Shown piece by piece: positions 4,637 through 30,206 of a stretch of 64,000 nucleotides of DNA (position 1 is its first letter; the number at the start of each line of letters is the position of its first letter). The notes under the pieces were generated by a model. That model worked only from the letters and a program-made list of their open reading frames with translations, did not search any database and was not told the DNA's origin. The stretch is taken from contig CAZHMU010000009.1 in NCBI GenBank assembly GCA_964533825.1, positions 1,168-65,167 of the forward strand, read 5' to 3'. Source of the DNA: an uncultured Oscillospiraceae bacterium (lineage in GTDB: Bacteria; Bacillota; Clostridia; Christensenellales; CAG-314). Made by a program: the position numbers and the translations under genes.

Positions 4637-7279
4637 GTGGCAACAAAGTATACTTATTTGTTTAGTGAAGGCGATGCTTCCATGCGTGAACTTCTTGGTG
4701 GTAAGGGTGCAAACCTTGCTGAAATGACCAAAATTGGTCTTCCAGTTCCACAAGGTTTCACGATTTCTACAGAAGCTTGCACAAAGTACTACGAAGACGG
4801 TAGACAAATCAATGACGAAATCAAGGCGCAAATCATGGTCGCTATCGAAAGAATGGAAGAAGTTACCGGCAAAAAGTTCGGCGACAAGGAAAATCCACTT
4901 CTTGTATCCGTTCGTTCTGGTGCACGTGCATCCATGCCAGGTATGATGGACACAATTTTGAACCTTGGTCTTAACGAAGAAGTAGTAGAAGTTCTTTCTG
5001 CTAAATCCGGCAACCCACGTTGGGCTTGGGACTGCTACCGCAGATTCATCCAAATGTTCTCCGACGTTGTTATGGAAGTTGGTAAAAAATATTTCGAAGA
5101 ACTCATCGACAAGATGAAGGAAGAAAAGGGTGTTACATCCGATATTGAACTTACAGCAGACGACCTCAAGGAACTTGCTAACCAATTCAAAGCAGAGTAC
5201 AAAGGAAAGTTGGGAACAGACTTCCCATCCGACCCAAAAGAACAACTCTTTGCAGCTGTTGAAGCCGTTTTCCGTTCTTGGGACAACCCACGTGCTAACA
5301 TCTACCGTATGGACCACGACATCCCATACTCTTGGGGTACAGCAGTAAACGTACAAGCAATGGCATTTGGTAACATGGGTGACGATTGCGGTACAGGTGT
5401 AGCCTTTACACGTAACCCTGCAACAGGCGAAAAGGGTCTTATGGGCGAATTCTTGATGAACGCTCAAGGCGAAGACGTAGTTGCCGGTGTTCGTACACCA
5501 ATGCCTATTTCTCAAATGGCAGAAATTTTGCCAGACGTTTACAAACAATTCTTGGACGTTTGCAACATCTTGGAAAATCACTACCGTGATATGCAAGATA
5601 TGGAATTCACAATCGAAAAGGGCAAGCTTTACATGCTCCAAACTCGTAATGGTAAGCGTACAGCTGCTGCAGCTATCAAAATTGCTTGCGACCTTATCGA
5701 CGAAGGCATGATCACCGAACAAGAAGCTCTTCTCCAAATCGACGCTAAATCTTTGGATATGCTCCTTCACCCAACATTTGATACAGCTGCTTTGAAGGCT
5801 GCTGACAAAAACAACGTTGTTGGTAAGGGTATCGCTGCAAGCCCAGGCGCTGCTGCTGGTACAATCGTATTTACACCAGAAGATGCAGTTGTTCTTGGTA
5901 AGCAAAAGAAAAAGGTTATCCTTGTTCGTCTTGAAACTTCTCCAGAAGACATCGAAGGTATGAAGTACTCTCAAGGTATCTTGACAGTACGTGGCGGTCA
6001 AACATCTCACGCTGCAGTAGTTGCTCGTGGTATGGGTACTTGCTGTGTATCTGGTTGTGGCGACATCAAGATGGACGAAGCTAACAAGTGCTTTACACTT
6101 GGTGGCAAAGTGTTCCACGAAGGTGACGAACTCTCCTTGGACGGCTCCACAGGTAAGATCTACGACATCGCTATCAAGACTGTTCCTGCAGATCCTAACA
6201 GCGGTTACTTTGGACGTATCATGAAGCTTGCCGACAAGTACAAGCAACTTGGCGTACGTACAAACGCTGATACACCAACTGATGCTCAACGCGCTACAGA
6301 ACTTGGCGCACAAGGTATTGGTCTTTGCCGTACAGAACACATGTTCTTTGGCGAAGGTCGTATCGACAAGATTCGTGAAATGATCTGTGCTGAAACAGTT
6401 GCAGAACGCGAAGCAGCTCTTGCAAAGATCGAACCACTTCAACAAGGCGACTTCGAAGGCATGATGGAAGCAATGCAAGGACAACCTATCACAATCCGTT
6501 TCATTGACCCACCACTCCACGAGTTTGTTCCAACCGAAGCAAAGGATATTGAACTTCTTGCTAACACAACAGGCAAAACTGTTGACGAAATCAAACAAAT
6601 TTGCGATTCTCTCCACGAATTCAACCCAATGATGGGTCACCGTGGTTGCCGTCTTGCAGTAACCTACCCAGAAATTGCAGTAATGCAAACAAAGGCTGTT
6701 ATCAAGGCTGCATTGGCAGTACAAGCACGTCATGCTGATTGGAACGTTGTTCCTGAAATCATGATCCCACTTGTAGGCGAAATCAAAGAGTTGCAATACG
6801 TTAAGAACGTTGTTGTCAAGACAGCTAACGAACTCATCGCTGCTGCTGGTTCCGACATGCACTACAAAGTTGGTACAATGATCGAAATCCCACGTGCTGC
6901 ATTGACAGCTGACGAAATCGCTCAAGAAGCAGAATTTTTCAGCTTTGGTACAAACGACCTTACACAAATGACTTTCGGTTTCTCTCGTGACGACGCAAGC
7001 AAATTCTTGCCAAGCTACTACTCCACAAAGATTTACGAAAGCGATCCATTTGCTCGTTTGGACCAAAAGGGTGTTGGCAAACTTGTTAAGATGGCTGCTG
7101 AACTTGGTCGTTCCACACGTCCTGATATCAAACTTGGTATCTGCGGCGAACACGGTGGTGACCCAAGCACAATCGAATTCTGCCACAAAGTTGGTCTCAC
7201 ATACGTTTCCTGCTCACCATTCCGTGTGCCCATTGCTCGTCTTGCTGCTGCTCAAGCTGCAATCAAATTCCCTCGCTAA
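4637..7279 (+). CDS. ppdK: Pyruvate, phosphate dikinase
   Basis: GTG start 7 nt after CAGGAGG. N-terminus KYTYLFSEG..GGKGANLAEM, phospho-histidine loop GGQTSHAAVVARGMG, C-terminal PEP-utilising TIM domain (GICGEHGGDP). Confidence 0.95.
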   Translation: MATKYTYLFSEGDASMRELLGGKGANLAEMTKIGLPVPQGFTISTEACTKYYEDGRQINDEIKAQIMVAIERMEEVTGKKFGDKENPLLVSVRSGARASMPGMMDTILNLGLNEEVVEVLSAKSGNPRWAWDCYRRFIQMFSDVVMEVGKKYFEELIDKMKEEKGVTSDIELTADDLKELANQFKAEYKGKLGTDFPSDPKEQLFAAVEAVFRSWDNPRANIYRMDHDIPYSWGTAVNVQAMAFGNMGDDCGTGVAFTRNPATGEKGLMGEFLMNAQGEDVVAGVRTPMPISQMAEILPDVYKQFLDVCNILENHYRDMQDMEFTIEKGKLYMLQTRNGKRTAAAAIKIACDLIDEGMITEQEALLQIDAKSLDMLLHPTFDTAALKAADKNNVVGKGIAASPGAAAGTIVFTPEDAVVLGKQKKKVILVRLETSPEDIEGMKYSQGILTVRGGQTSHAAVVARGMGTCCVSGCGDIKMDEANKCFTLGGKVFHEGDELSLDGSTGKIYDIAIKTVPADPNSGYFGRIMKLADKYKQLGVRTNADTPTDAQRATELGAQGIGLCRTEHMFFGEGRIDKIREMICAETVAEREAALAKIEPLQQGDFEGMMEAMQGQPITIRFIDPPLHEFVPTEAKDIELLANTTGKTVDEIKQICDSLHEFNPMMGHRGCRLAVTYPEIAVMQTKAVIKAALAVQARHADWNVVPEIMIPLVGEIKELQYVKNVVVKTANELIAAAGSDMHYKVGTMIEIPRAALTADEIAQEAEFFSFGTNDLTQMTFGFSRDDASKFLPSYYSTKIYESDPFARLDQKGVGKLVKMAAELGRSTRPDIKLGICGEHGGDPSTIEFCHKVGLTYVSCSPFRVPIARLAAAQAAIKFPR

Positions 7280-23575: not shown

Positions 23576-23884
23576 ATGAAAACATTAGGAGAAAGAATAA
23601 CCATATTATTAAACGAAAAACACATATTGCAAAAAGATCTTGCCATTATGATTGGTGTGACTGAATCTGCATTGTCAAGATATATTAACAACGAACGAGA
23701 ACCCAAAATAGAAGTTTTGGCAAATCTTGCAACTGCGTTGGAAACAACCGTTGACTACTTGACTACTGGTAAAAAACCAGAAACAGATTTTGATGAAATC
23801 TATCGTTTGGTTGCAAGAAGCTCCTACAGCTTGACAGAATCACAAAAAATGCAAATTATTGAGGCGGTAATGCGTAACAAATGA
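23576..23884 (+). CDS. XRE-family helix-turn-helix transcriptional regulator
   Basis: RBS AAGGGGAAAAGCAG before the ATG. HTH_3 pattern LGERITILLNEKHILQKDLAIMIGVTESALSRYINNEREP. Confidence 0.9.
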   Translation: MKTLGERITILLNEKHILQKDLAIMIGVTESALSRYINNEREPKIEVLANLATALETTVDYLTTGKKPETDFDEIYRLVARSSYSLTESQKMQIIEAVMRNK

Positions 23885-24447
23885 TAGATACAGCTCGTGT
23901 AAACCCATCAAAAATACCATCGTGGATGTATGATGAAATCGAAAGAAAAGTGGTTGACTTATACAAAGAACAAGGAATAACGGAAGTACCAATAAACCCT
24001 TTCGAAATTATCAAAAAAAGAGGATACATATTGGTTCCATTTTCAAAGCTTCAAAATACTTTTTTATCTGGAAAGGATGGCGATAAACACGATGCCTTAT
24101 CCTTTTTCGTTCCAGAGCTTCAAAGATATGTAATAGCTTATAACGATGAAAAGCCATTACCACGTCTTCGTTTTACACTTATGCATGAAATTGCTCACAT
24201 TGATTTGGGTCACAGGGGGGAAAGTGACTTGGCAAGACGTATGGCAGACTATTACGCAGGGTATGCTTTGGCGCCATCCCCATTGATAGGCCTTTTTACA
24301 AGCGGAAGCAAAACGGAAATTCAAACTAAATTTGAGGTATCCAATGAGTGTGCTGAAGTTTCTCAAAATAGGTACTACAAATGGTCCGTCTATGGCGGTA
24401 ATAATTACAAGGATTATGAACTTGTTTTACTAAATTTATTTAATTAA
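23881..24447 (+). CDS. ImmA/IrrE-family zinc metallopeptidase
   Basis: ATGA overlap with the XRE gene. HEXXH motif in TLMHEIAHIDLGH. Classic XRE+ImmA pairing. Confidence 0.85.
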   Translation: MIDTARVNPSKIPSWMYDEIERKVVDLYKEQGITEVPINPFEIIKKRGYILVPFSKLQNTFLSGKDGDKHDALSFFVPELQRYVIAYNDEKPLPRLRFTLMHEIAHIDLGHRGESDLARRMADYYAGYALAPSPLIGLFTSGSKTEIQTKFEVSNECAEVSQNRYYKWSVYGGNNYKDYELVLLNLFN

Positions 24448-24518
24448 ATAACAAAATTCTTTAACAAAAAAGAAAAGCACCTAACAGTTGCTACCAACAA
24501 CTGTTAAGTGCCTATCAG

Positions 24519-24537
24519 GAAATGTGTTACACATTTC
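24519..24537. promoter_or_regulatory. Inverted repeat upstream of the DUF4417 gene
   Basis: GAAATGTG-TTA-CACATTTC. It follows a second hairpin GCACCTAACAGTTG...CAACTGTTAAGTGC at about 24477-24511. Confidence 0.35.
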
Positions 24538-24633
24538 ACAGGACACAAATAGTATAACACTTCCTGTCTTTTTTGTCAAATCTATTTTTGACGCCAACCA
24601 AAGGTTGAGATTACATTTTACAGGAGGTGTTAT

Positions 24634-25302
24634 ATGGACACTCTTTTTACCATACCCAAAATGGCACAAAAAGACGTTTTTAACTCGTTTTTAGTTACAA
24701 ACGCGACGTATGACGGTGAAGACGAAATTCCCGTTATCAAAACAAGTAACCTTATTCCCGAAAAGGTTATTTCCTTTTCAAAAGCCAAAAGTAAACAAGA
24801 CTACAATGCTTGGGTTCATTTTTACCAGTGTGATAGTGAAATTGAGCGCTTTTGGAGAAATCCACAGAAGTATTTGCCAATGCTAAAAAGGCACAAAGGA
24901 GTTATTTCTCCAGATTATAGTTTGTACTATGATATGCCTTTATGTATGCAAAAGTACAATACATATCGTGGTAAAGCACTTGCGCATTGGCTAATAGAAA
25001 ATGGTGTAGAAGTAATACCCAACGTTCGGTGGGGAGATGAGCGTACCTTTGATACTGCCTGTCTTGGTGTTGAACCTAACAAGACCATTGCCGTAGGTAC
25101 CCATGGTTGTATCAAGACAGTCGAAGGAAAAAGGATGTTTATTGCTGGCTTTGACTATGTAGTAAACAAACTTACTCCCCAAAGGATAGTAGTTTACGGA
25201 CGTATGCCGGACAAAATCTTTTGCTTGGCAAGGATGTATGGCGTAGAACTAATTCCATTTGAAAGCGAATTTGGCTTAACCCACAAAAAGGGGGTGAGCT
25301 GA
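24634..25302 (+). CDS. DUF4417-domain protein
   Basis: RBS CAGGAGGTGTTAT before the ATG. 222 aa. Pattern WVHFYQCDSEIERFW...ISPDYSLYYDMP...NTYRGKALAHWL..GVEVIPNVRWGDERTF is remembered as DUF4417. Confidence 0.65.
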   Translation: MDTLFTIPKMAQKDVFNSFLVTNATYDGEDEIPVIKTSNLIPEKVISFSKAKSKQDYNAWVHFYQCDSEIERFWRNPQKYLPMLKRHKGVISPDYSLYYDMPLCMQKYNTYRGKALAHWLIENGVEVIPNVRWGDERTFDTACLGVEPNKTIAVGTHGCIKTVEGKRMFIAGFDYVVNKLTPQRIVVYGRMPDKIFCLARMYGVELIPFESEFGLTHKKGVS

Positions 25303-25332
25303 TATGGGAGCTGGATATCATGGCGGATTTGG
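25230..25332 (+). repeat. Direct repeat copy A (DUF4417 3' end + stop + first 10 codons of the next ORF)
   Basis: Aligns with 26304-26405 with about 7 differences by eye, including one 1-nt indel in an A5G5/A5G4 tract. Confidence 0.9.
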
Positions 25333-25735
25333 TAATACTGCTGGAGAAAATAAACATAAAAATAATGTTGACACTATTAAAAAGAGTAAAGGTAAATATT
25401 TAGCAAATTTTGGAACTATAGATAGCAATGCAAAAGCAATGAGTTCTATATATCCCATGAAAAATGGATATTTTGGGGTAAAGGGAAAAAACCATAGAGT
25501 TATATATAGTAAAGATCAATATAAAACGGCTTCTGATTTTTATTTGAGAATTTCTCGTGGTGGCAGCGAAAAATCTTTGCCTAATAATAAGGGTAAAATT
25601 AGTTATTTGGAAGATGGCACTAAAATTGTTTACAGACCTAAAACCTCTACTCCAGATAGTCCAGCTGTTGAAATAACTATATATTATCCCAATAGTGTTC
25701 GCGGTCAAAAAATACATTTCTTAAAGGAGGATTAG
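25304..25735 (+). CDS. Variable cassette 1, small basic protein (putative effector/toxin), shared MGAGYHGGFG N-terminus
   Basis: The ATG lies 1 nt after the DUF4417 stop. 143 aa, Lys-rich. The C-terminal region (..IVYRPKTSTPDSPAVEITIYYPNSVRGQKIHF) matches no family I can name. Confidence 0.45.
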   Translation: MGAGYHGGFGNTAGENKHKNNVDTIKKSKGKYLANFGTIDSNAKAMSSIYPMKNGYFGVKGKNHRVIYSKDQYKTASDFYLRISRGGSEKSLPNNKGKISYLEDGTKIVYRPKTSTPDSPAVEITIYYPNSVRGQKIHFLKED

Positions 25736-25737
25736 AG

Positions 25738-26304
25738 GTGATAGAAGCTAAATTTTCAAATGAAATGCTACAGTATTTGGGAAAATTAAATAACTCGTGG
25801 TTTATTAAATACATCACTGATGATGAAACAAGTGGCAATTCAACATATTGCAAGTTAGGGATTGATTCCGATAATGTTTGTTTGGATATATTTAATGAAG
25901 AAACAAATGTTGATTGGTTTGTATCTGGAAATAAGATTCAACAAGAAGACATCTCAGTTTTTTCTTGTGCAATCAGGAATGATGGCGAAAAATTTCAACC
26001 ATATTTGGGCGAATCCCAAATTATTGCTATTGATGTTAATGAAAAAATAGGTAAAGTAGAAATTGTTTCCGATTTGATTGATGTAAATAATGGCGAATAT
26101 ACAATTGACTACGATATGGCAATAATTATAGAAACCGAAAAGCACAAATATATATTCTCTCGCGGATGGTATTTTGATGAAGAAATATATATCAATGTTG
26201 ATAAGAGCATAGATGAAATATATCCAATTCGAGAAGTTCAGGAATCGTGGAGTAATGATGGAGAATTTGTCGTCAAAGTAAGCAGAGTAGTAAAGACAAT
26301 CTAA
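25738..26304 (+). CDS. Variable cassette 1 partner, acidic protein (putative immunity/antidote)
   Basis: GTG start 2 nt after the upstream stop, with AAGGAGG upstream. 188 aa, Asp/Glu-rich, no recognised family. Confidence 0.4.
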   Translation: MIEAKFSNEMLQYLGKLNNSWFIKYITDDETSGNSTYCKLGIDSDNVCLDIFNEETNVDWFVSGNKIQQEDISVFSCAIRNDGEKFQPYLGESQIIAIDVNEKIGKVEIVSDLIDVNNGEYTIDYDMAIIIETEKHKYIFSRGWYFDEEIYINVDKSIDEIYPIREVQESWSNDGEFVVKVSRVVKTI

Positions 26305-26405
26305 AGGATGTATGGCATAGAACTAATTCCGTTTGAAAGCGAATTTGGCTTGACCCACAAAAAGGGGTGAGTTGATATGGGGGCTGGATATCATGGTGGA
26401 TTTGG
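26304..26405 (+). repeat. Direct repeat copy B (orphan DUF4417 3' fragment + start of the cassette 2 ORF)
   Basis: It would encode ..RMYGIELIPFESEFGLTHKKG* against ..RMYGVELIPFESEFGLTHKKGVS* in the intact gene. The substitutions are mostly synonymous. Confidence 0.9.
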
Positions 26406-26799
26406 CAAGACATATGGGGAAAAAAGCAGGCTGAATAATATCAAAAAACCCATTACAAGAGTTGGCGATGTTAGGTATAGCTCAAGAAAGACTGAAGGGT
26501 ACTTGTTGAACATAAATCATCCATATGGTAGTTCTAAGGCAAAATTTATGAGAGATGTTTTGGGCTATTCTGTAGATGATTCAAAACTATTTCACAAAAA
26601 TGTTGTAAAATCGATAATTAACGAGGAACCATACAAGACTATTGAAACGATGTATGGACTAAAACACACATACCATACAGTATTAATTGGTAAAAATGGT
26701 GATAAAGTTACTGCAAATGTGGTAGTGGTAGTGCAGAAAGATAAAAAAAGGGTTACATATAAGATTGTAACTGTATATCCTAACAAAAAGGGGGATTAG
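26377..26799 (+). CDS. Variable cassette 2, DUF6883-like protein with the shared MGAGYHGGFG N-terminus
   Basis: 140 aa. Pattern TEGYLLNINHPYGSSKAKFMRDVLGY...YG.KH...L.G.NG.......VVVQKD....YKIVTVYP is remembered as DUF6883. Confidence 0.5.
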   Translation: MGAGYHGGFGKTYGEKSRLNNIKKPITRVGDVRYSSRKTEGYLLNINHPYGSSKAKFMRDVLGYSVDDSKLFHKNVVKSIINEEPYKTIETMYGLKHTYHTVLIGKNGDKVTANVVVVVQKDKKRVTYKIVTVYPNKKGD

Positions 26800-26801
26800 G
26801 T

Positions 26802-26993
26802 ATGAAAGAATTAGACGTAGTAATGTTAACAGAAAACTTTGAGAATATTCTTGCAGGAACAAAAGGCACTGTCGTTTGCGAATACGATAGAACCGCTTTT
26901 GAAGTTGAGTTCTTCGATAATGATGGGGATACTATTGATGTTGTTACAATTCCAGCTAATTTACTGGTTTTAGTTGAAGAATATAAAATGTAA
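26802..26993 (+). CDS. Variable cassette 2 partner, DUF4926-like small protein
   Basis: RBS AAAGGGGGATTAGGT before the ATG. 63 aa. Pattern D.V.L......L..G..GTVV.......FEVEF.D..G.T..V..IP...L matches my memory of DUF4926. Confidence 0.5.
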   Translation: MKELDVVMLTENFENILAGTKGTVVCEYDRTAFEVEFFDNDGDTIDVVTIPANLLVLVEEYKM

Positions 26994-27064: not shown

Positions 27065-27094
27065 AAAAGGACGAGAAAATTTTCTCGTCCTTTT
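27065..27094. terminator. Bidirectional terminator; right edge of islet 1 and terminator of upp
   Basis: Perfect 30-nt palindrome AAAAGGACGAGAAAA/TTTTCTCGTCCTTTT. Confidence 0.85.
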
Positions 27095-27149
27095 GTCTTT
27101 AGCATCAATTCAGTTATTTGCAAATCGGTCAATATTTTTGATACAAACC

Positions 27150-27779: not shown

Positions 27780-27989
27780 AGTTATCTCTCCTTTATGTAT
27801 GATATATTTTTTGTTGATTTGTATTGTTTGTGTAGCGCAAGTATTGCGATTGAGATGTTGATGTTTATCCAAGCCCAGTACATTGATTTCAACAAAAACT
27901 GTGGTAAATGTCATTTCCAATGCCCTTGTGATGGTGCAATCACACGAACAGCATTTTTACTTTCCACCAAGCTGTGCAACACCGCAAAC

Positions 27990-28028
27990 TAAAAAAATAA
28001 CGCTCGATTGAACAAACAATCAAAGCGT
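27990..28028 (-). terminator. Intrinsic terminator/attenuator inside the upp leader
   Basis: On the minus strand, an imperfect stem ACGCTTTGATTG...CAATCGAGCGT is followed by TTATTTTTTT. It starts right after the stop of the small ORF. Confidence 0.5.
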
Positions 28029-28109
28029 CTAAAAAATAGGGGCAAAAAGGGAACAAGATGCCATTGCACTGATGTTTTGGAATTGACTTGTGCAAACGAT
28101 TCTCTTCAT
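28029..28109 (-). CDS. Candidate 26-aa leader peptide upstream of upp (MKRIVCTSQFQNISAMASCSLFAPIF)
   Basis: AAAAGGAG lies 7 nt before the ATG. The ORF sits between a promoter (28134-28162) and the terminator. It is absent from the ORF track because it is under 60 aa. Confidence 0.3.
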   Translation of the reverse strand: MKRIVCTSQFQNISAMASCSLFAPIF

Positions 28110-28133
28110 GGCTGTGCTCCTTTTCTCTGCAAT

Positions 28134-28162
28134 ATTGTACTACAATTTGATTTTGCAATCAA
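28134..28162 (-). promoter_or_regulatory. Sigma-A type promoter for the upp leader
   Basis: Minus strand: TTGATT, 17-nt spacer, TACAAT. Confidence 0.5.
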
Positions 28163-28230
28163 GCGTTTTGGGGTTTGTGTTTTAATATTTTTTTTGTAGG
28201 TATTATAAGATGGTATTTACATAACAAAAT

Positions 28231-28259
28231 ATGCTCTATAAGTTTGACCTATAGAGCAT
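28231..28259 (-). terminator. Hairpin downstream of the methyltransferase gene
   Basis: 10-bp stem ATGCTCTATA/TATAGAGCAT. The T-tract on the minus strand is weak. Confidence 0.45.
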
Positions 28260-28278
28260 TGTTAGTTATATAAGCATA

Positions 28279-28833
28279 TTAAATTTTCTTAAACACAAAC
28301 AGGTATTCGTGGGCGAGTAGCAAAAAGTTGTATTTTACGCTATTTGTTTTCCAAAAACCTGTTGCTTTGCAATTGTGTTGTTCTTTTATGATTATTTCTT
28401 TTGCTTTGAATCCTGCAAGTTCAAAAATGCGCATTGTTTCAAATGCAAGAGGTTGTACCATGCCATTTTTACGAGTATCGCCCATCAATACAGCACAATA
28501 CTTGCCCTTTTTTAAAACTCTATAGCTTTCCTCGGCAACCTTGCCAATTTCCATCAAAAATGGCTTGATGGATAGTTGTGACAAGTCGCCATCGATACCA
28601 TCGCTGTATTGAATAATATCTGCATAGGGTGGATGTGTGCAAATGAGGTCAACGCTTTCGTCAGGCAAGTCCAATTTGCGAGCATCGCCAAGACGGATGG
28701 AAATATCCACGTTTGAGTCAAACTCAAAATCGCATTTTCTTTGAGAAAGTTCTACAGCGTTAGGATTGATGTCAATGCCAATAAAGTTTCTGCCTGTTAG
28801 CTTTGCTTCAACTGCGGTTGTGCCACCGCCCAC
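28279..28833 (-). CDS. SAM-dependent DNA (N6-A/N4-C) methyltransferase, apparently 5'-truncated
   Basis: Motif I (ILDQF)VGGGTTAVEA..GRNFIGIDINP sits at the very N-terminus and motif IV is CTHPPY. In-frame TAA and TAG lie 6-7 codons upstream of the GTG. No RBS is visible. Related enzymes, as I recall them, carry about 40-60 residues before motif I. Confidence 0.6.
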   Translation of the reverse strand: MGGGTTAVEAKLTGRNFIGIDINPNAVELSQRKCDFEFDSNVDISIRLGDARKLDLPDESVDLICTHPPYADIIQYSDGIDGDLSQLSIKPFLMEIGKVAEESYRVLKKGKYCAVLMGDTRKNGMVQPLAFETMRIFELAGFKAKEIIIKEQHNCKATGFWKTNSVKYNFLLLAHEYLFVFKKI

Positions 28834-28863
28834 AAATTGGTCTAAAATAATCTATTATGATAT

Positions 28864-29193
28864 TTAACTAATCATCTGTTTTAGTTGTTTTAATATTAGA
28901 AAGATGTGATTGCTACATTGGTTTTCTTCGTAATGTTTTTCTTCTTCTGTCCACAAATATTCTACAATCTTTTTAATGTTATTCTTTAGAGACTCATCCA
29001 ATAGTTGCTCTCCTATAATGCAGTTTTCATTAAAGCCGTTTTTTGTTATCCATTGATTATTTTTTAATAGTGAATTAAGCGCATCACCCATATTATGCCC
29101 AGATGCTTGACCTAAAACCTGAAGGTTTTCTACTGGTTGATTAGTTGGACTTTCGGTATAGCCATCTGGTGTGTAAAATATATATCGTTTCAT
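28864..29193 (-). CDS. Hypothetical 109-aa protein in the DpnI-like operon
   Basis: TAATG overlap with the upstream endonuclease gene. No recognised motif. Confidence 0.45.
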   Translation of the reverse strand: MKRYIFYTPDGYTESPTNQPVENLQVLGQASGHNMGDALNSLLKNNQWITKNGFNENCIIGEQLLDESLKNNIKKIVEYLWTEEEKHYEENQCSNHIFLILKQLKQMIS

Positions 29194-29960
29194 TACTTTT
29201 TTCTATAAACCCCGTTTCCTAAGAATTCTATATATCCCTTATCTCGAAGTATTTGAAGCTGTTGGCGTATTTTTGCTTCAACATTTTTATTTTGCGGATG
29301 CAATGTTGATAAAAAATGAGCAAACTTGTATACATCTCCTAATGTGAATAAATCTTGTGGGATTTGATTGATGCAGTTTAGCACATCAATTAACCAACTT
29401 CTTTTATCAATGCTTTCAATATATAATGAATTGCTTCTATTTACGCATCGAACAACATCCAGCGCGCTATTTACTAAGCCGTCCTTTACTATGTCAATTC
29501 GACCTTGTAGCGGTATCTTGTCAATTAAAATATTACACCCTATCCAACCTGCACGGCGAGCAGACTGGGATAAAGGGGCACGAGCTTCAATAACCGATGG
29601 TGTAAAAAAGTGTCTGGGGATTATTATTAAATCCTTTACACGATATTCTATTTTTGAATAGCTCATAAACAAAAAATCAGGGTTTTGATTGCTTGTTATT
29701 CTTGAAATCATAGTTGAGTATGCGCCATCATTAATTTTGTTTCTTATTGGGCCAACTTTGCTTTTTAATTCAAATTGATTATTGCAAGATGGGCAATAAA
29801 AATCAGCTACTGGTCGATTGTTTTCAAAATGCAAAATATGGGTATTTCCACATCTTGGGCAGTACAAATTGTCTAACACCCATTGTTCAGTTAAAACACG
29901 TGCCTTTTGTGTATTGCTATGATATTGATTTGTAATATTAGTATTAAAATCCAAGTTCAT
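29193..29960 (-). CDS. DpnI-family methyl-directed type IIM restriction endonuclease
   Basis: 255 aa. Blocks QKARVLTEQWV..YCPRCG...HFENNRPVADFYCPSC..QFELKS, NDGAYSTM, ARRAGWIGCNI and C-terminal KIRQQLQILRDKGYIEF match my memory of S. pneumoniae DpnI end to end. Confidence 0.8.
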   Translation of the reverse strand: MNLDFNTNITNQYHSNTQKARVLTEQWVLDNLYCPRCGNTHILHFENNRPVADFYCPSCNNQFELKSKVGPIRNKINDGAYSTMISRITSNQNPDFLFMSYSKIEYRVKDLIIIPRHFFTPSVIEARAPLSQSARRAGWIGCNILIDKIPLQGRIDIVKDGLVNSALDVVRCVNRSNSLYIESIDKRSWLIDVLNCINQIPQDLFTLGDVYKFAHFLSTLHPQNKNVEAKIRQQLQILRDKGYIEFLGNGVYRKK

Positions 29961-29961
29961 A

Positions 29962-30159
29962 TTATTGCAGTTTGTCCTTATTTTCTTTTTTTCGTTTATC
30001 TATGGGCTTTTCGGCTGTGCTTGGAATAATCCACATATTGCCAACCATCATTGCACCTTTGATGCGTTCTTCTGAACACAGGATAGCAACTCTTCTTTGA
30101 GAAATATTCCATTTTTGAGCAGCTTCTTTTGCTGACATATAACTAAGCATAGCAATCAC
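29962..30159 (-). CDS. Small helix-turn-helix DNA-binding protein (possible controller)
   Basis: 65 aa. SAKEAAQKWNISQRRVAILCSEERIKGAMMVGNMWIIP is typical of the excisionase/MerR-like HTH_17 type. First gene of the operon. Confidence 0.65.
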   Translation of the reverse strand: MIAMLSYMSAKEAAQKWNISQRRVAILCSEERIKGAMMVGNMWIIPSTAEKPIDKRKKENKDKLQ

Positions 30160-30177
30160 CTCAATTATGATGACTAT

Positions 30178-30206
30178 ATTATATTCTAAATCGCGAATAA
30201 TAGCAA
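30178..30206 (-). promoter_or_regulatory. Promoter of the HTH-DpnI-like operon
   Basis: Minus strand: TTGCTA, 17-nt spacer, TATAAT. Confidence 0.6.

Follow-up and report, generated by a model that had tools for sequence, protein, structure and literature searches.

Polymorphic toxin systems have been defined by Zhang et al. 2012 and by Jamet & Nassif 2015. Their marks are a shared N-terminus joined to unrelated C-termini, a co-varying immunity gene directly downstream, recognised toxin families, extra cassettes further downstream that keep remnants of the constant region, an N-terminal secretion or trafficking domain, and a toxin that stops or kills cells unless its own immunity protein neutralises it. 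In the contact-dependent inhibition (CDI) and Rhs systems, recombination within the constant region exchanges the cassettes (Poole et al. 2011; Koskiniemi et al. 2014). These systems are known by a main gene of large size, CdiA or Rhs, in which a VENN or PxxxxDPxGL motif marks the boundary to the variable end, and their displaced orphans lack a translation start of their own. In Vibrio cholerae, the auxiliary clusters of its type VI secretion system (T6SS) reportedly place a conserved accessory gene before a polymorphic effector, and successive displacement is said to leave arrays of modules. Here, we describe a locus with displaced cassettes in a 64,000-nucleotide stretch of a contig from an uncultured Oscillospiraceae bacterium. 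This whole stretch is called the window, and positions without a locus label refer to it. The locus contains a direct repeat of 103 bases, each copy of which joins the end of a DUF4417 gene to the start of a predicted toxin gene.

We put at roughly 85% the probability that the repeat marks the fixed junction of a locus for polymorphic toxins and their immunity proteins, in which the cassettes are replaceable. The constant part would consist of the DUF4417 gene, a Shine-Dalgarno (SD) sequence within its last codons, and a 14-residue tag on the next gene. Everything past the tag would be a swappable cassette encoding a small basic toxin domain and an acidic immunity protein. An incoming cassette would recombine by using the DUF4417 end and the tag as homology, and the resident cassette would be displaced downstream, retaining a stub of the old DUF4417 3' end. 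In the window, slot 1 would hold an unclassified toxin with its immunity gene and slot 2 a DUF6883 RNase-type toxin with a DUF4926 immunity protein. The operon would stand behind a helix-turn-helix (HTH) repressor and an M78 peptidase, with induction by stress or DNA damage, and its products, with DUF4417 working together with the tag, might act on competing cells.

Structure of the repeat and the junction

The two copies were compared by global alignment of 25230-25350 with 26304-26423. From 25230 to 25332 (copy A) and from 26304 to 26405 (copy B), they differ by 6 substitutions and a 1-nt indel, which makes exact the count of about seven differences that a preliminary description of this DNA had given for a direct repeat of about 103 bp. 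The substitutions lie at 25243, 25257, 25278, 25299, 25309, and 25324 of copy A, and the indel sets an A5G5 tract (25285-25294) in copy A against A5G4 in copy B. The likeness extends over the full repeat, and a residual likeness tails off by about 25350/26423. The left edge is abrupt, with 9 of 40 bases matching immediately upstream, and in copy B it falls on the TAA stop of the 188-amino-acid (aa) open reading frame (ORF) of the first immunity gene, imm1. On the 3' side, 20 of 60 bases match, which is the random level. The two copies match perfectly over at most 20 nt in a row. When up to 3 mismatches are tolerated, the first 64 nt of copy A occur at only two sites in the 64 kb, against an expectation of 0.00 from 100 shuffles, and a repeat search of the window reports the pair as two segments of 95% and 85%. 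The 103-base repeat is thereby confirmed as real and beyond chance.

In translation, copy A reads ..RMYGVELIPFESEFGLTHKKGVS, a stop codon, and then MGAGYHGGFG, and copy B reads RMYGIELIPFESEFGLTHKKG between two stop codons, followed by the same MGAGYHGGFG. Both translations agree with those given before, including the ends and the starts. The orphan DUF4417 end that had been proposed for copy B is indeed a remnant of that gene (Table 1), and it differs from the true end by one nonsynonymous change (V to I) and two synonymous ones (CCA/CCG and TTA/TTG). As had also been claimed, the ORFs diverge past the shared segment: the two toxin ORFs are alike over the first ~22 residues only and are unrelated beyond residue 22. 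The two downstream ORFs, imm1 and imm2, are mutually unrelated.

The junction was then aligned across 17 cases, taken from the window and 14 related genome loci. Throughout, the last DUF4417 codons (..CAT AAA AAG GAG GTx..) form the SD sequence of the next gene, and the DUF4417 stop and the toxin ATG lie 0 to 2 bases apart. At the SD-equivalent position, the 15 related junctions read AAAGGAGGTG. The A5G5/A5G4 tract, in which the preliminary description had placed the 1-nt indel, is therefore a Shine-Dalgarno sequence and not a slippery or phase-variable site. The tag comprises 14 residues, MGAGYHGGFGxTxG. Its MGAGYHGGFG codons vary synonymously among loci while the peptide stays constant, which argues that the peptide itself is selected and not DNA homology alone. 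The frame relation between DUF4417 and the toxin varies among loci, which rules out conserved recoding. The second toxin gene, tox2, has its own ATG at 26377, preceded by AAAGGGGTGA, and is a complete gene. Thus tox2, complete with SD sequence and ATG and with no terminator detected before it, is not a silent, 5'-truncated orphan of the kind known from the CDI/Rhs-type organisation that had been suggested. As a separate observation, the 242-aa DUF4417 homologue P0012 ends in ..HKKGGGVNGCRLSRRFWKNKRRIEKK, where a frameshift in the G-run reads into the toxin start region in another frame.

Exchange of cassettes among related loci

In locus L114, a DUF4417 gene (P0001) 93% identical to that of the window is followed by an Ntox50 toxin, and in L001 the toxin behind a DUF4417 gene of 89% identity is PBECR1-like. 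Both loci match the window at about 90% DNA identity along DUF4417, and this match drops to the random level by about 25325-25385, where the repeat ends on its 3' side. The preliminary description had predicted that relatives would carry different cassettes behind one conserved junction, and the comparison supports a swapping of cassettes between relatives at the constant junction.

The same cassette also occupies different slots. The tox1/imm1 pair stands first in the window, first and alone in L120, and second of three cassettes in L121/L122, with DUF4417 remnants of 55 and 80 codons on its two sides. It is further found behind DUF4417 in a gut phage-like scaffold (L130) with a different Gly-rich N-terminus; the toxin 1 homologue there has 52% identity, starting only at residue 34. 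The DUF6883 toxin, second in the window, lies directly behind a full-length DUF4417 gene in L104 and behind a frameshifted one in L089. Extra downstream cassettes with remnants of the constant region occur in the window, L005, L011, L089, and L121/L122. The remnants that separate cassettes span 21 to about 150 codons; before non-first cassettes their left ends fall at positions 73, 138, 160, 177, 181, and 197 of the DUF4417 hidden Markov model (HMM), and the right end is constant. Varied left ends and a constant right end are expected from homologous exchange on one side and illegitimate joining on the other.

Two further arrangements were noted. In L006, a single reading frame of 152 aa (5875-6333) runs from sequence of the DUF4417 middle (..GTHGCIK) into the C-terminal two thirds of a DUF6883 toxin, and DUF4926 comes next; this ORF is what a deletion has left of a cassette that once held the first slot. 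In L121, a WapI-family immunity gene and three small ORFs (1443-1934) lie just upstream of the HTH/M78/DUF4417 array and may be an immunity gene cluster.

Toxin domains and immunity partners

For a census of the tagged genes, a degenerate DNA pattern for the tag was used and gave 82 metagenome contigs. DUF4417 is present on 79 of them, and the 3 exceptions are contigs of 1.3 to 3.8 kb. A full-length DUF4417 gene stands directly before ~75 of 105 tagged ORFs. When the 95 tagged proteins of at least 100 aa were compared after residue 16, they fell into 15 C-terminal clusters behind the invariant tag. Ntox50 (5e-25), LHH nuclease (2.6e-30), EndoU_bacteria (5.7e-8), and DUF6883 were recognised within Pfam thresholds, with weaker signals of PBECR1, JAB, and HExxH motifs; about 29 of 37 sampled toxin representatives belong to no family, and neither does toxin 1 of the window.

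The toxins are paired with the ORF that directly follows. Toxin clusters and next-ORF clusters correspond nearly one to one (for example, 22/29, 9/9, 7/8, and 5/5), with SUKH_5 (1.6e-26) behind LHH and DUF4926 behind DUF6883. A recent reclassification counts DUF6883 among the BECR RNase toxins and names DUF4926 as the conserved partner downstream of it (bioRxiv 10.64898/2026.08.28.747851). The window toxins are basic (pI 9.8-9.9) and their partners acidic (pI 4.1-4.3), and none has a hydrophobic segment. Judged from these sequence features, the locus is a toxin-immunity system, with toxicity as its predicted activity. The part shared by the toxins is the 14-residue Gly-rich tag alone; the tagged N-terminus shows no signal peptide or hydrophobic segment and no Pfam match, that is, no known secretion or trafficking domain.

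A profile of the tag retrieved 133 protein clusters among 1.84 billion representative proteins. All are of at most 184 aa, and the tag stands at residue 1 in 131 of the 133 and at residues 19 and 11 in the others. From a 5.8-billion protein set the profile returned only truncated ORFs of 32 to 72 aa, hence no census was drawn from it. The tag pattern had 0 matches in the 2.9 million viral contigs of IMG/VR.

Several variants of the tagged genes stand beside the main form. In 8 contigs (L035, L052, L061, L081, L085, L090, L096, and L109), tag and linker are fused to an immunity-type protein (..LLDYLQGPIWKSD.., like L003 3515-3844), giving a product of 135 aa. These fusions lie behind full-length DUF4417 (in L109, DUF4417 is cut by the contig end), and they have neither a toxin domain nor a partner ORF after them. 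In one toxin cluster (L047, L053, L067 [4735, minus-strand orientation], and P0165), a Prp-type cleavage motif (..MNLQFF'ASK..) lies ~20 residues past the tag. The same motif is cleaved in ribosomal protein L27 and in phage 80alpha capsid proteins (PMC9405229), and by analogy, the host Prp protease may remove the tag in this cluster. In the rumen metagenome loci L067, L071, L093, and L110, tagged cassettes are also found upstream of DUF4417, with a conserved ~76-nt spacer between; 3 of these loci have an AAA_21 ATPase gene (1.1e-31) in place of the HTH/M78 pair. L071 also carries a second, distant DUF4417 gene next to an hsdM-like gene.

Variation within the species

The same-species set comprised 7 contigs from one sample series (SRR143076xx) with the exact DUF4417 or toxin 2 protein of the window. 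In every one, the site lies between trmK/DUF164-type genes and upp and has the same pair of cassettes. The two-cassette layout is identical on 2 independent metagenome contigs, and 4 more have it with small variants.

The variants lie within the repeats. At 25243 of copy A, four of the same-species contigs show the base of copy B. In L115 and L119, copy A carries a copy-B-like patch and lacks one G, which shifts the frame of toxin 1 and leaves immunity gene 1 intact. Conversely, copy B of L119 holds the copy-A patch GAGCTGATATGGGAG, so that the patches are reciprocal, and copy B of L117 has G5 rather than G4. Such combinations are not producible by mixing k-mers of the two copies of the window, and the sequences are therefore real. 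Patches have thus been exchanged between the copies, and the patchwork indicates gene conversion. The frameshift in toxin 1 is due to one base lost in an ATGGG(A/G)G run (L115 2929-3359 and L119 1089-1519, equivalent to 25304-25735 of the window); as read from the two genes, this is a loss of the toxin with the immunity gene kept.

Genes of the island and their proposed regulation

The features of the island are collected in Table 1. Its GC content is 35%, against 40 to 45% in the flanks.

Table 1. Features of the island and their positions in the window
Feature	Position	Strand	Basis
HTH regulator of the XRE type, 102 aa, leading gene of the island	23576..23884	+	Pfam HTH_3 2.4e-11; PADLOC capH 5.7e-10
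M78 (ImmA/IrrE-like) metallopeptidase, 188 aa, HEIAH motif	23881..24447	+	Pfam Peptidase_M78 2.8e-8; PADLOC capP 4.1e-7
Conserved intergenic block, candidate small RNA gene and/or operator	24466..24580	-	Promoter-like site, two hairpins, T-run
DUF4417 gene, 222 aa, constant gene	24634..25302	+	Pfam DUF4417 1.2e-58; 409 homologues; AlphaFold 2 pLDDT 90
Repeat copy A: last 24 DUF4417 codons (199 onwards, 25230-25302), SD, first ~15 codons of toxin 1	25230..25350	+	
SD sequence of toxin 1, AAGGGGGTGA, within the last DUF4417 codons, including the G5 run	25288..25297	+	
Toxin 1 (predicted), 143 aa, pI 9.8	25304..25735	+	Tag MGAGYHGGFGNTAG (25304-25345), disordered linker, C-terminal domain without family
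Immunity protein 1 (presumed), 188 aa, pI 4.3	25738..26304	+	Follows tox1 homologues in L011, L120, L121, L130; acidic
Repeat copy B	26304..26423	+	Alignment and repeat search
DUF4417 3'-end remnant, 21 codons and TGA, SD kept (A5G4)	26305..26370	+	RMYGIELIPFESEFGLTHKKG and stop; DUF4417 HMM positions 197-220
Toxin 2 (predicted), 140 aa, pI 9.9, same tag and DUF6883 (BECR-Tox3 RNase-type)	26377..26799	+	Pfam DUF6883 5.4e-13
Immunity protein 2 (predicted), 63 aa, pI 4.1, DUF4926	26802..26993	+	Pfam DUF4926 4.1e-16
GC-rich palindrome, A-run before and T-run after, likely bidirectional terminator	27069..27100	+	Read from sequence

Toxin 1 has no Pfam match and no significant structural match in the PDB (model with a predicted local distance difference test score [pLDDT] of 68); its residues 1 to 36 have pLDDT values below 50, and its family is small, with 12 proteins. 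Likewise, immunity protein 1 has no Pfam family match and no structural match. Neither PADLOC nor NCBIfam yielded a model that matches DUF4417, either toxin, or either immunity gene, and a scan of the island against Rfam gave no known RNA family. The strong hairpin at 27069-27100, which as a likely bidirectional terminator would close the operon, also yields spurious matches to miRNA precursors.

The start of the M78 gene overlaps the stop of the HTH gene. As in CapH/CapP- or ImmR/ImmA-type systems, an XRE-type HTH gene and an adjacent M78 (COG2856) gene lie upstream; the matches to the CapH/CapP models are weak, and the layout is that of ImmR/ImmA. An HTH gene is found at this position in every related locus inspected, and the HTH/M78 pair precedes DUF4417 in all related loci except for the three rumen loci with AAA_21, in at least 4 mutually diverged versions. 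Diverged M78 partners were seen in L005, L006, L010, L093, and L116. In L116 (1195-2078), which is of the same species, another regulator pair (HTH_31 of 118 aa and a weak M78 of 174 aa) stands before a near-identical DUF4417 gene, which implies that the regulatory module is exchanged as well. By analogy with the known pairs, in which the peptidase cleaves the repressor upon DNA damage or another signal, an HTH repressor with an M78 peptidase suggests stress- or DNA-damage-induced expression.

The intergenic block upstream of DUF4417 contains a strong promoter-like site on the minus strand (TTGACA-17-TATACT, which includes TG and matches at 11/12). Two hairpins accompany it, a short one (24519-24537) and a terminator-like one of 18 pairs (24513-24475, or 24513-24465 with its T-run). 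The block is kept in 10 related loci, with compensatory changes at 6 pairs, and is a candidate for a small RNA gene of ~78 nt (24466-24544) or an operator region. A scan for promoters and terminators found no intrinsic terminator on the plus strand between imm1 and tox2. Together with the palindrome and T-run after imm2, this makes expression of the second cassette likely, and both toxin genes, which are intact, are probably cotranscribed.

A second low-GC island lies beyond upp on the minus strand (27800-30200). It encodes a methyl-directed restriction enzyme of the DpnI family (29193-29960; 9e-76), an N6_N4 DNA methylase in a short ORF (28279-28833), a 109-aa ORF, and a small HTH gene (29962-30159).

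DUF4417 and its partners in phages

The AlphaFold model of DUF4417 (pLDDT 90) is of the alpha/beta type. Among 54 homologues, 24 positions are invariant, including D14, E31, D67, D94, R132, D135, and C159, and H157 is nearly so. Comparison with PDB structures gave only weak TIM-barrel-like matches (best E value, 1.6e-2; template modeling [TM] score, ≤0.40), with no significant one and no TGT among them, and a profile search of PDB sequences gave nothing meaningful, with no sequence-level match to TGT or DpdA. Among predicted viral structures, the matches after the DUF4417 relatives were to phage queuine tRNA-ribosyltransferase (DpdA/TGT-like; E values, 1.4e-3 to 3e-2; TM scores, 0.38 to 0.50). 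DpdA works with the ParB-fold ATPase DpdB, and in the sole mention of DUF4417 found in the literature, it is a phage-enriched fusion partner of ParB-CTPase domains. The DpdA/TGT-like match is suggestive because the partner of DpdA has a ParB fold; from these models, we regard a TGT/DpdA-like fold for DUF4417 as a lead and do not assign it.

There are 508 phage records with DUF4417. The gene stands before the terminase genes in Firmicute phages and is the first gene or lies near the right genome end in actinophages. In these elements, the neighboring gene also has a Gly-rich start: MGGRGASSG in phage A25, ..GGRGASSG in proPhi6, MGGRGSSSG in a gut phage, MGGRSGLKG in Dulem virus 39, NLQFF-GGRGGSSGFGK in phage Jekyll, ..GGRGASSGLG in an Enterocloster plasmid, and MGGRGTFAAGN beside the second DUF4417 gene of L071. 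Only 3.2% of the other ORFs at these loci start in this way. A tblastn search with the tagged ORF of phage Jekyll returned only itself. In Bifidobacterium goeldii, DUF4417 is followed by an EndoU toxin starting with MGTGELG.

Further neighbors of DUF4417 were seen in other lineages. In Mycobacterium phage CRB1 (gp1-gp2; L127 577-2177), an ADP-ribosyltransferase exoenzyme-type toxin (Pfam 8.9e-22) follows DUF4417 and has no Gly-rich start at its annotated start. At the left genome end of cluster-A-type mycobacteriophages, the DUF4417 gene comes first. For Streptococcus phage A25 gp23 (L124 3142-3552), the annotated start is MSDKG.., and a longer ORF that overlaps the DUF4417 end, as tagged partners do in other loci, starts with MGGRGASSG; the annotated start is probably nine codons too short. 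In a distant Clostridia clade, DUF4417 proteins of 361 to 396 aa carry a C-terminal Cys_rich_CPCC zinc-ribbon fusion (L017, L019, and L020); alternatively in this clade, for which L022 and L028 are also listed, the CPCC protein is separate and is preceded by a small protein upstream of DUF4417. That small protein starts with MGAGGIPSGG or MGSGGVTNHG and carries a ..RWYD.NG.. motif.

From these neighborhoods, DUF4417 and a protein with a Gly-rich N-terminus look like an old module, of which the system in the window would be a toxin-bearing offshoot. A wider proposal, which we consider speculative and rather unlikely, is that in this old module of Firmicute phages, plasmids, and islands, an enzyme-like alpha/beta DUF4417 protein, faintly TGT/DpdA-like in fold and in phages often fused to ParB-CTPase domains, recognises or processes the N-terminal peptide (MGGRGxSSG, MGAGYHGGFG, or one exposed after NLQFF) to load, deliver, or activate its partner. 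Gut Christensenellales-like Clostridia would then have turned it into a new polymorphic-toxin route.

Alternative explanations

Several observations weigh against the reading of the repeat as the constant junction of a polymorphic toxin-immunity locus. Toxin 1 and immunity protein 1 have no family or structural match, and the toxin role of the window genes is a prediction. The island and its immediate flanks contain no signal peptide, transmembrane segment, or secretion-system gene, so that delivery to other cells is unsupported. The cassettes upstream of DUF4417 beside an AAA_21 ATPase in the rumen loci fit defence as well as antagonism. A deletion or switch variant was sought in the 7 same-species contigs, and none was found; the recombinant deletion junction envisaged in the preliminary description is thus absent from this set. 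In addition, 20 nt of perfect identity is short for RecA-type recombination, so outright deletion between the two copies of the window is probably rare. The proposed deletion of cassette 1 by recombination between the repeats is in this sense possible, with no example among the contigs compared.

The uniformity of the species (the same two cassettes and the same chromosomal site in seven of seven contigs), together with identity blocks of at most 20 nt, could also mean that the repeat is a mere scar of one past insertion, with a layout now fixed and no ongoing role in recombination. We find this unlikely, because the strains differ in a patchwork manner inside the repeats, with copy-A and copy-B states exchanged in L119, because junction remnants with different left ends recur across many lineages, and because the same cassette is found in different slots among genomes. 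An assembly error or a simple tandem duplication of one cassette has practically no probability left: apart from the general hazard of repeats in short-read assembly, nothing speaks for it, and it is refuted by the identical layout in independent assemblies and by cassettes whose toxins and immunity genes are unrelated. The variant sites are also less than 31 nt apart, so that k-mers separate the two copies. Very improbable, and rejected, is a programmed frameshift or read-through at A5G5 that would fuse DUF4417, as an N-terminal delivery domain, to the toxin. Copy B and L010 do share the frame of DUF4417 and toxin, split only by a stop codon, and the DUF4417 tail of P0012 is a variant frameshifted in the G-tract. 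However, the frame relation varies freely among loci, the toxin frame of copy A is closed by TGA at 25295-25297, and the A/G tract fits the SD consensus in all loci. Moreover, no fused proteins occur among the 133 tag clusters, all of at most 184 aa with the tag at or near residue 1, and tagged genes also lie upstream of DUF4417.

The same anatomy could instead serve inside the cell, as a toxin-antitoxin or abortive-infection module triggered by stress or phage, with DUF4417 as sensor or activator, the "immunity" proteins as antitoxins, and no export. This is possible, if doubtful. The island has no secretion signal or apparatus, its regulators resemble CapH/CapP of defence systems, it adjoins the DpnI-type restriction island, the rumen sub-clade swaps the regulators for an AAA_21 ATPase typical of defence systems, and DUF4417 is mainly a phage protein, as its 508 phage records attest. 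On the other hand, LHH with SUKH_5, Ntox50, and EndoU are hallmarks of exported polymorphic toxins (Zhang et al. 2012). Arrays of displaced cassettes, loss of the toxin with the immunity gene kept, and toxin-less tag-immunity fusions typify antagonism between bacteria, and no PADLOC model matches DUF4417 or either toxin.

Comparison with known systems

A search of the literature for DUF4417/PF14386, for the tag sequences, and for ImmA with polymorphic toxins found no description of such a system. Polymorphic toxins are usually spotted by large N-terminal delivery domains (CdiA, Rhs, LXG, MuF, and PAAR). Standard searches miss the tag-bearing toxins, most of whose C-terminal domains belong to no family. 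It is a system that occurs commonly in Clostridia of the gut and rumen, among them Christensenellaceae-type metagenome-assembled genomes, and the weaponry of these bacteria is poorly known. It also gives DUF4417, which in hundreds of phages always lies near packaging genes or genome ends, a first functional context through its tight link to proteins with a Gly-rich N-terminus, which can be toxins. Tag and junction could be used as a search handle for new toxin and immunity domains.

With CDI (cdiA-CT/cdiI) and Rhs orphan arrays, the locus shares a constant region, variable toxin ends, a cognate immunity gene downstream, and displaced cassettes that keep a stub of the constant region. It differs in that the constant region is a separate gene for a 222-aa DUF4417 protein plus a 14-residue tag, with no giant CdiA or Rhs protein and no VENN or PxxxxDPxGL motif. 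Unlike the orphans of those systems, the displaced toxins are complete with their own SD sequence and ATG, as tox2 is. Furthermore, its hosts belong to the Clostridia, and two-partner and T6SS genes are absent.

The V. cholerae T6SS clusters are alike in having a conserved gene directly upstream of a polymorphic effector and arrays of older modules. Here, in contrast, there is no T6SS, DUF4417 is unrelated to DUF4123, DUF1795, and DUF2169, and the effectors are of 110 to 190 aa. The MuF-type phage toxins and PBECR polyvalent-protein effectors share the domains DUF6883/BECR-Tox3, Ntox50, PBECR1-like, and DUF4926 as well as a phage-linked constant partner. The present locus differs from them by its small stand-alone toxins, the absence of a MuF domain, and the absence of the tag from 2.9 million viral contigs. 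Colicin/pyocin-type operons, ImmR/ImmA, and CapH/CapP offer the likeness of a toxin and immunity operon under a repressor, which the peptidase could inactivate under stress. Here, by contrast to colicin/pyocin-type operons, no lysis or release gene was recognised, and the regulation is proposed from domain content. In general, the locus belongs to a known kind, the polymorphic toxin-immunity loci that carry displaced cassettes. Its novelty lies in how the constant part is built, from a separate DUF4417 gene, a tag of 14 residues, and a pair of HTH and M78 genes, combined with small stand-alone toxins in Clostridia.

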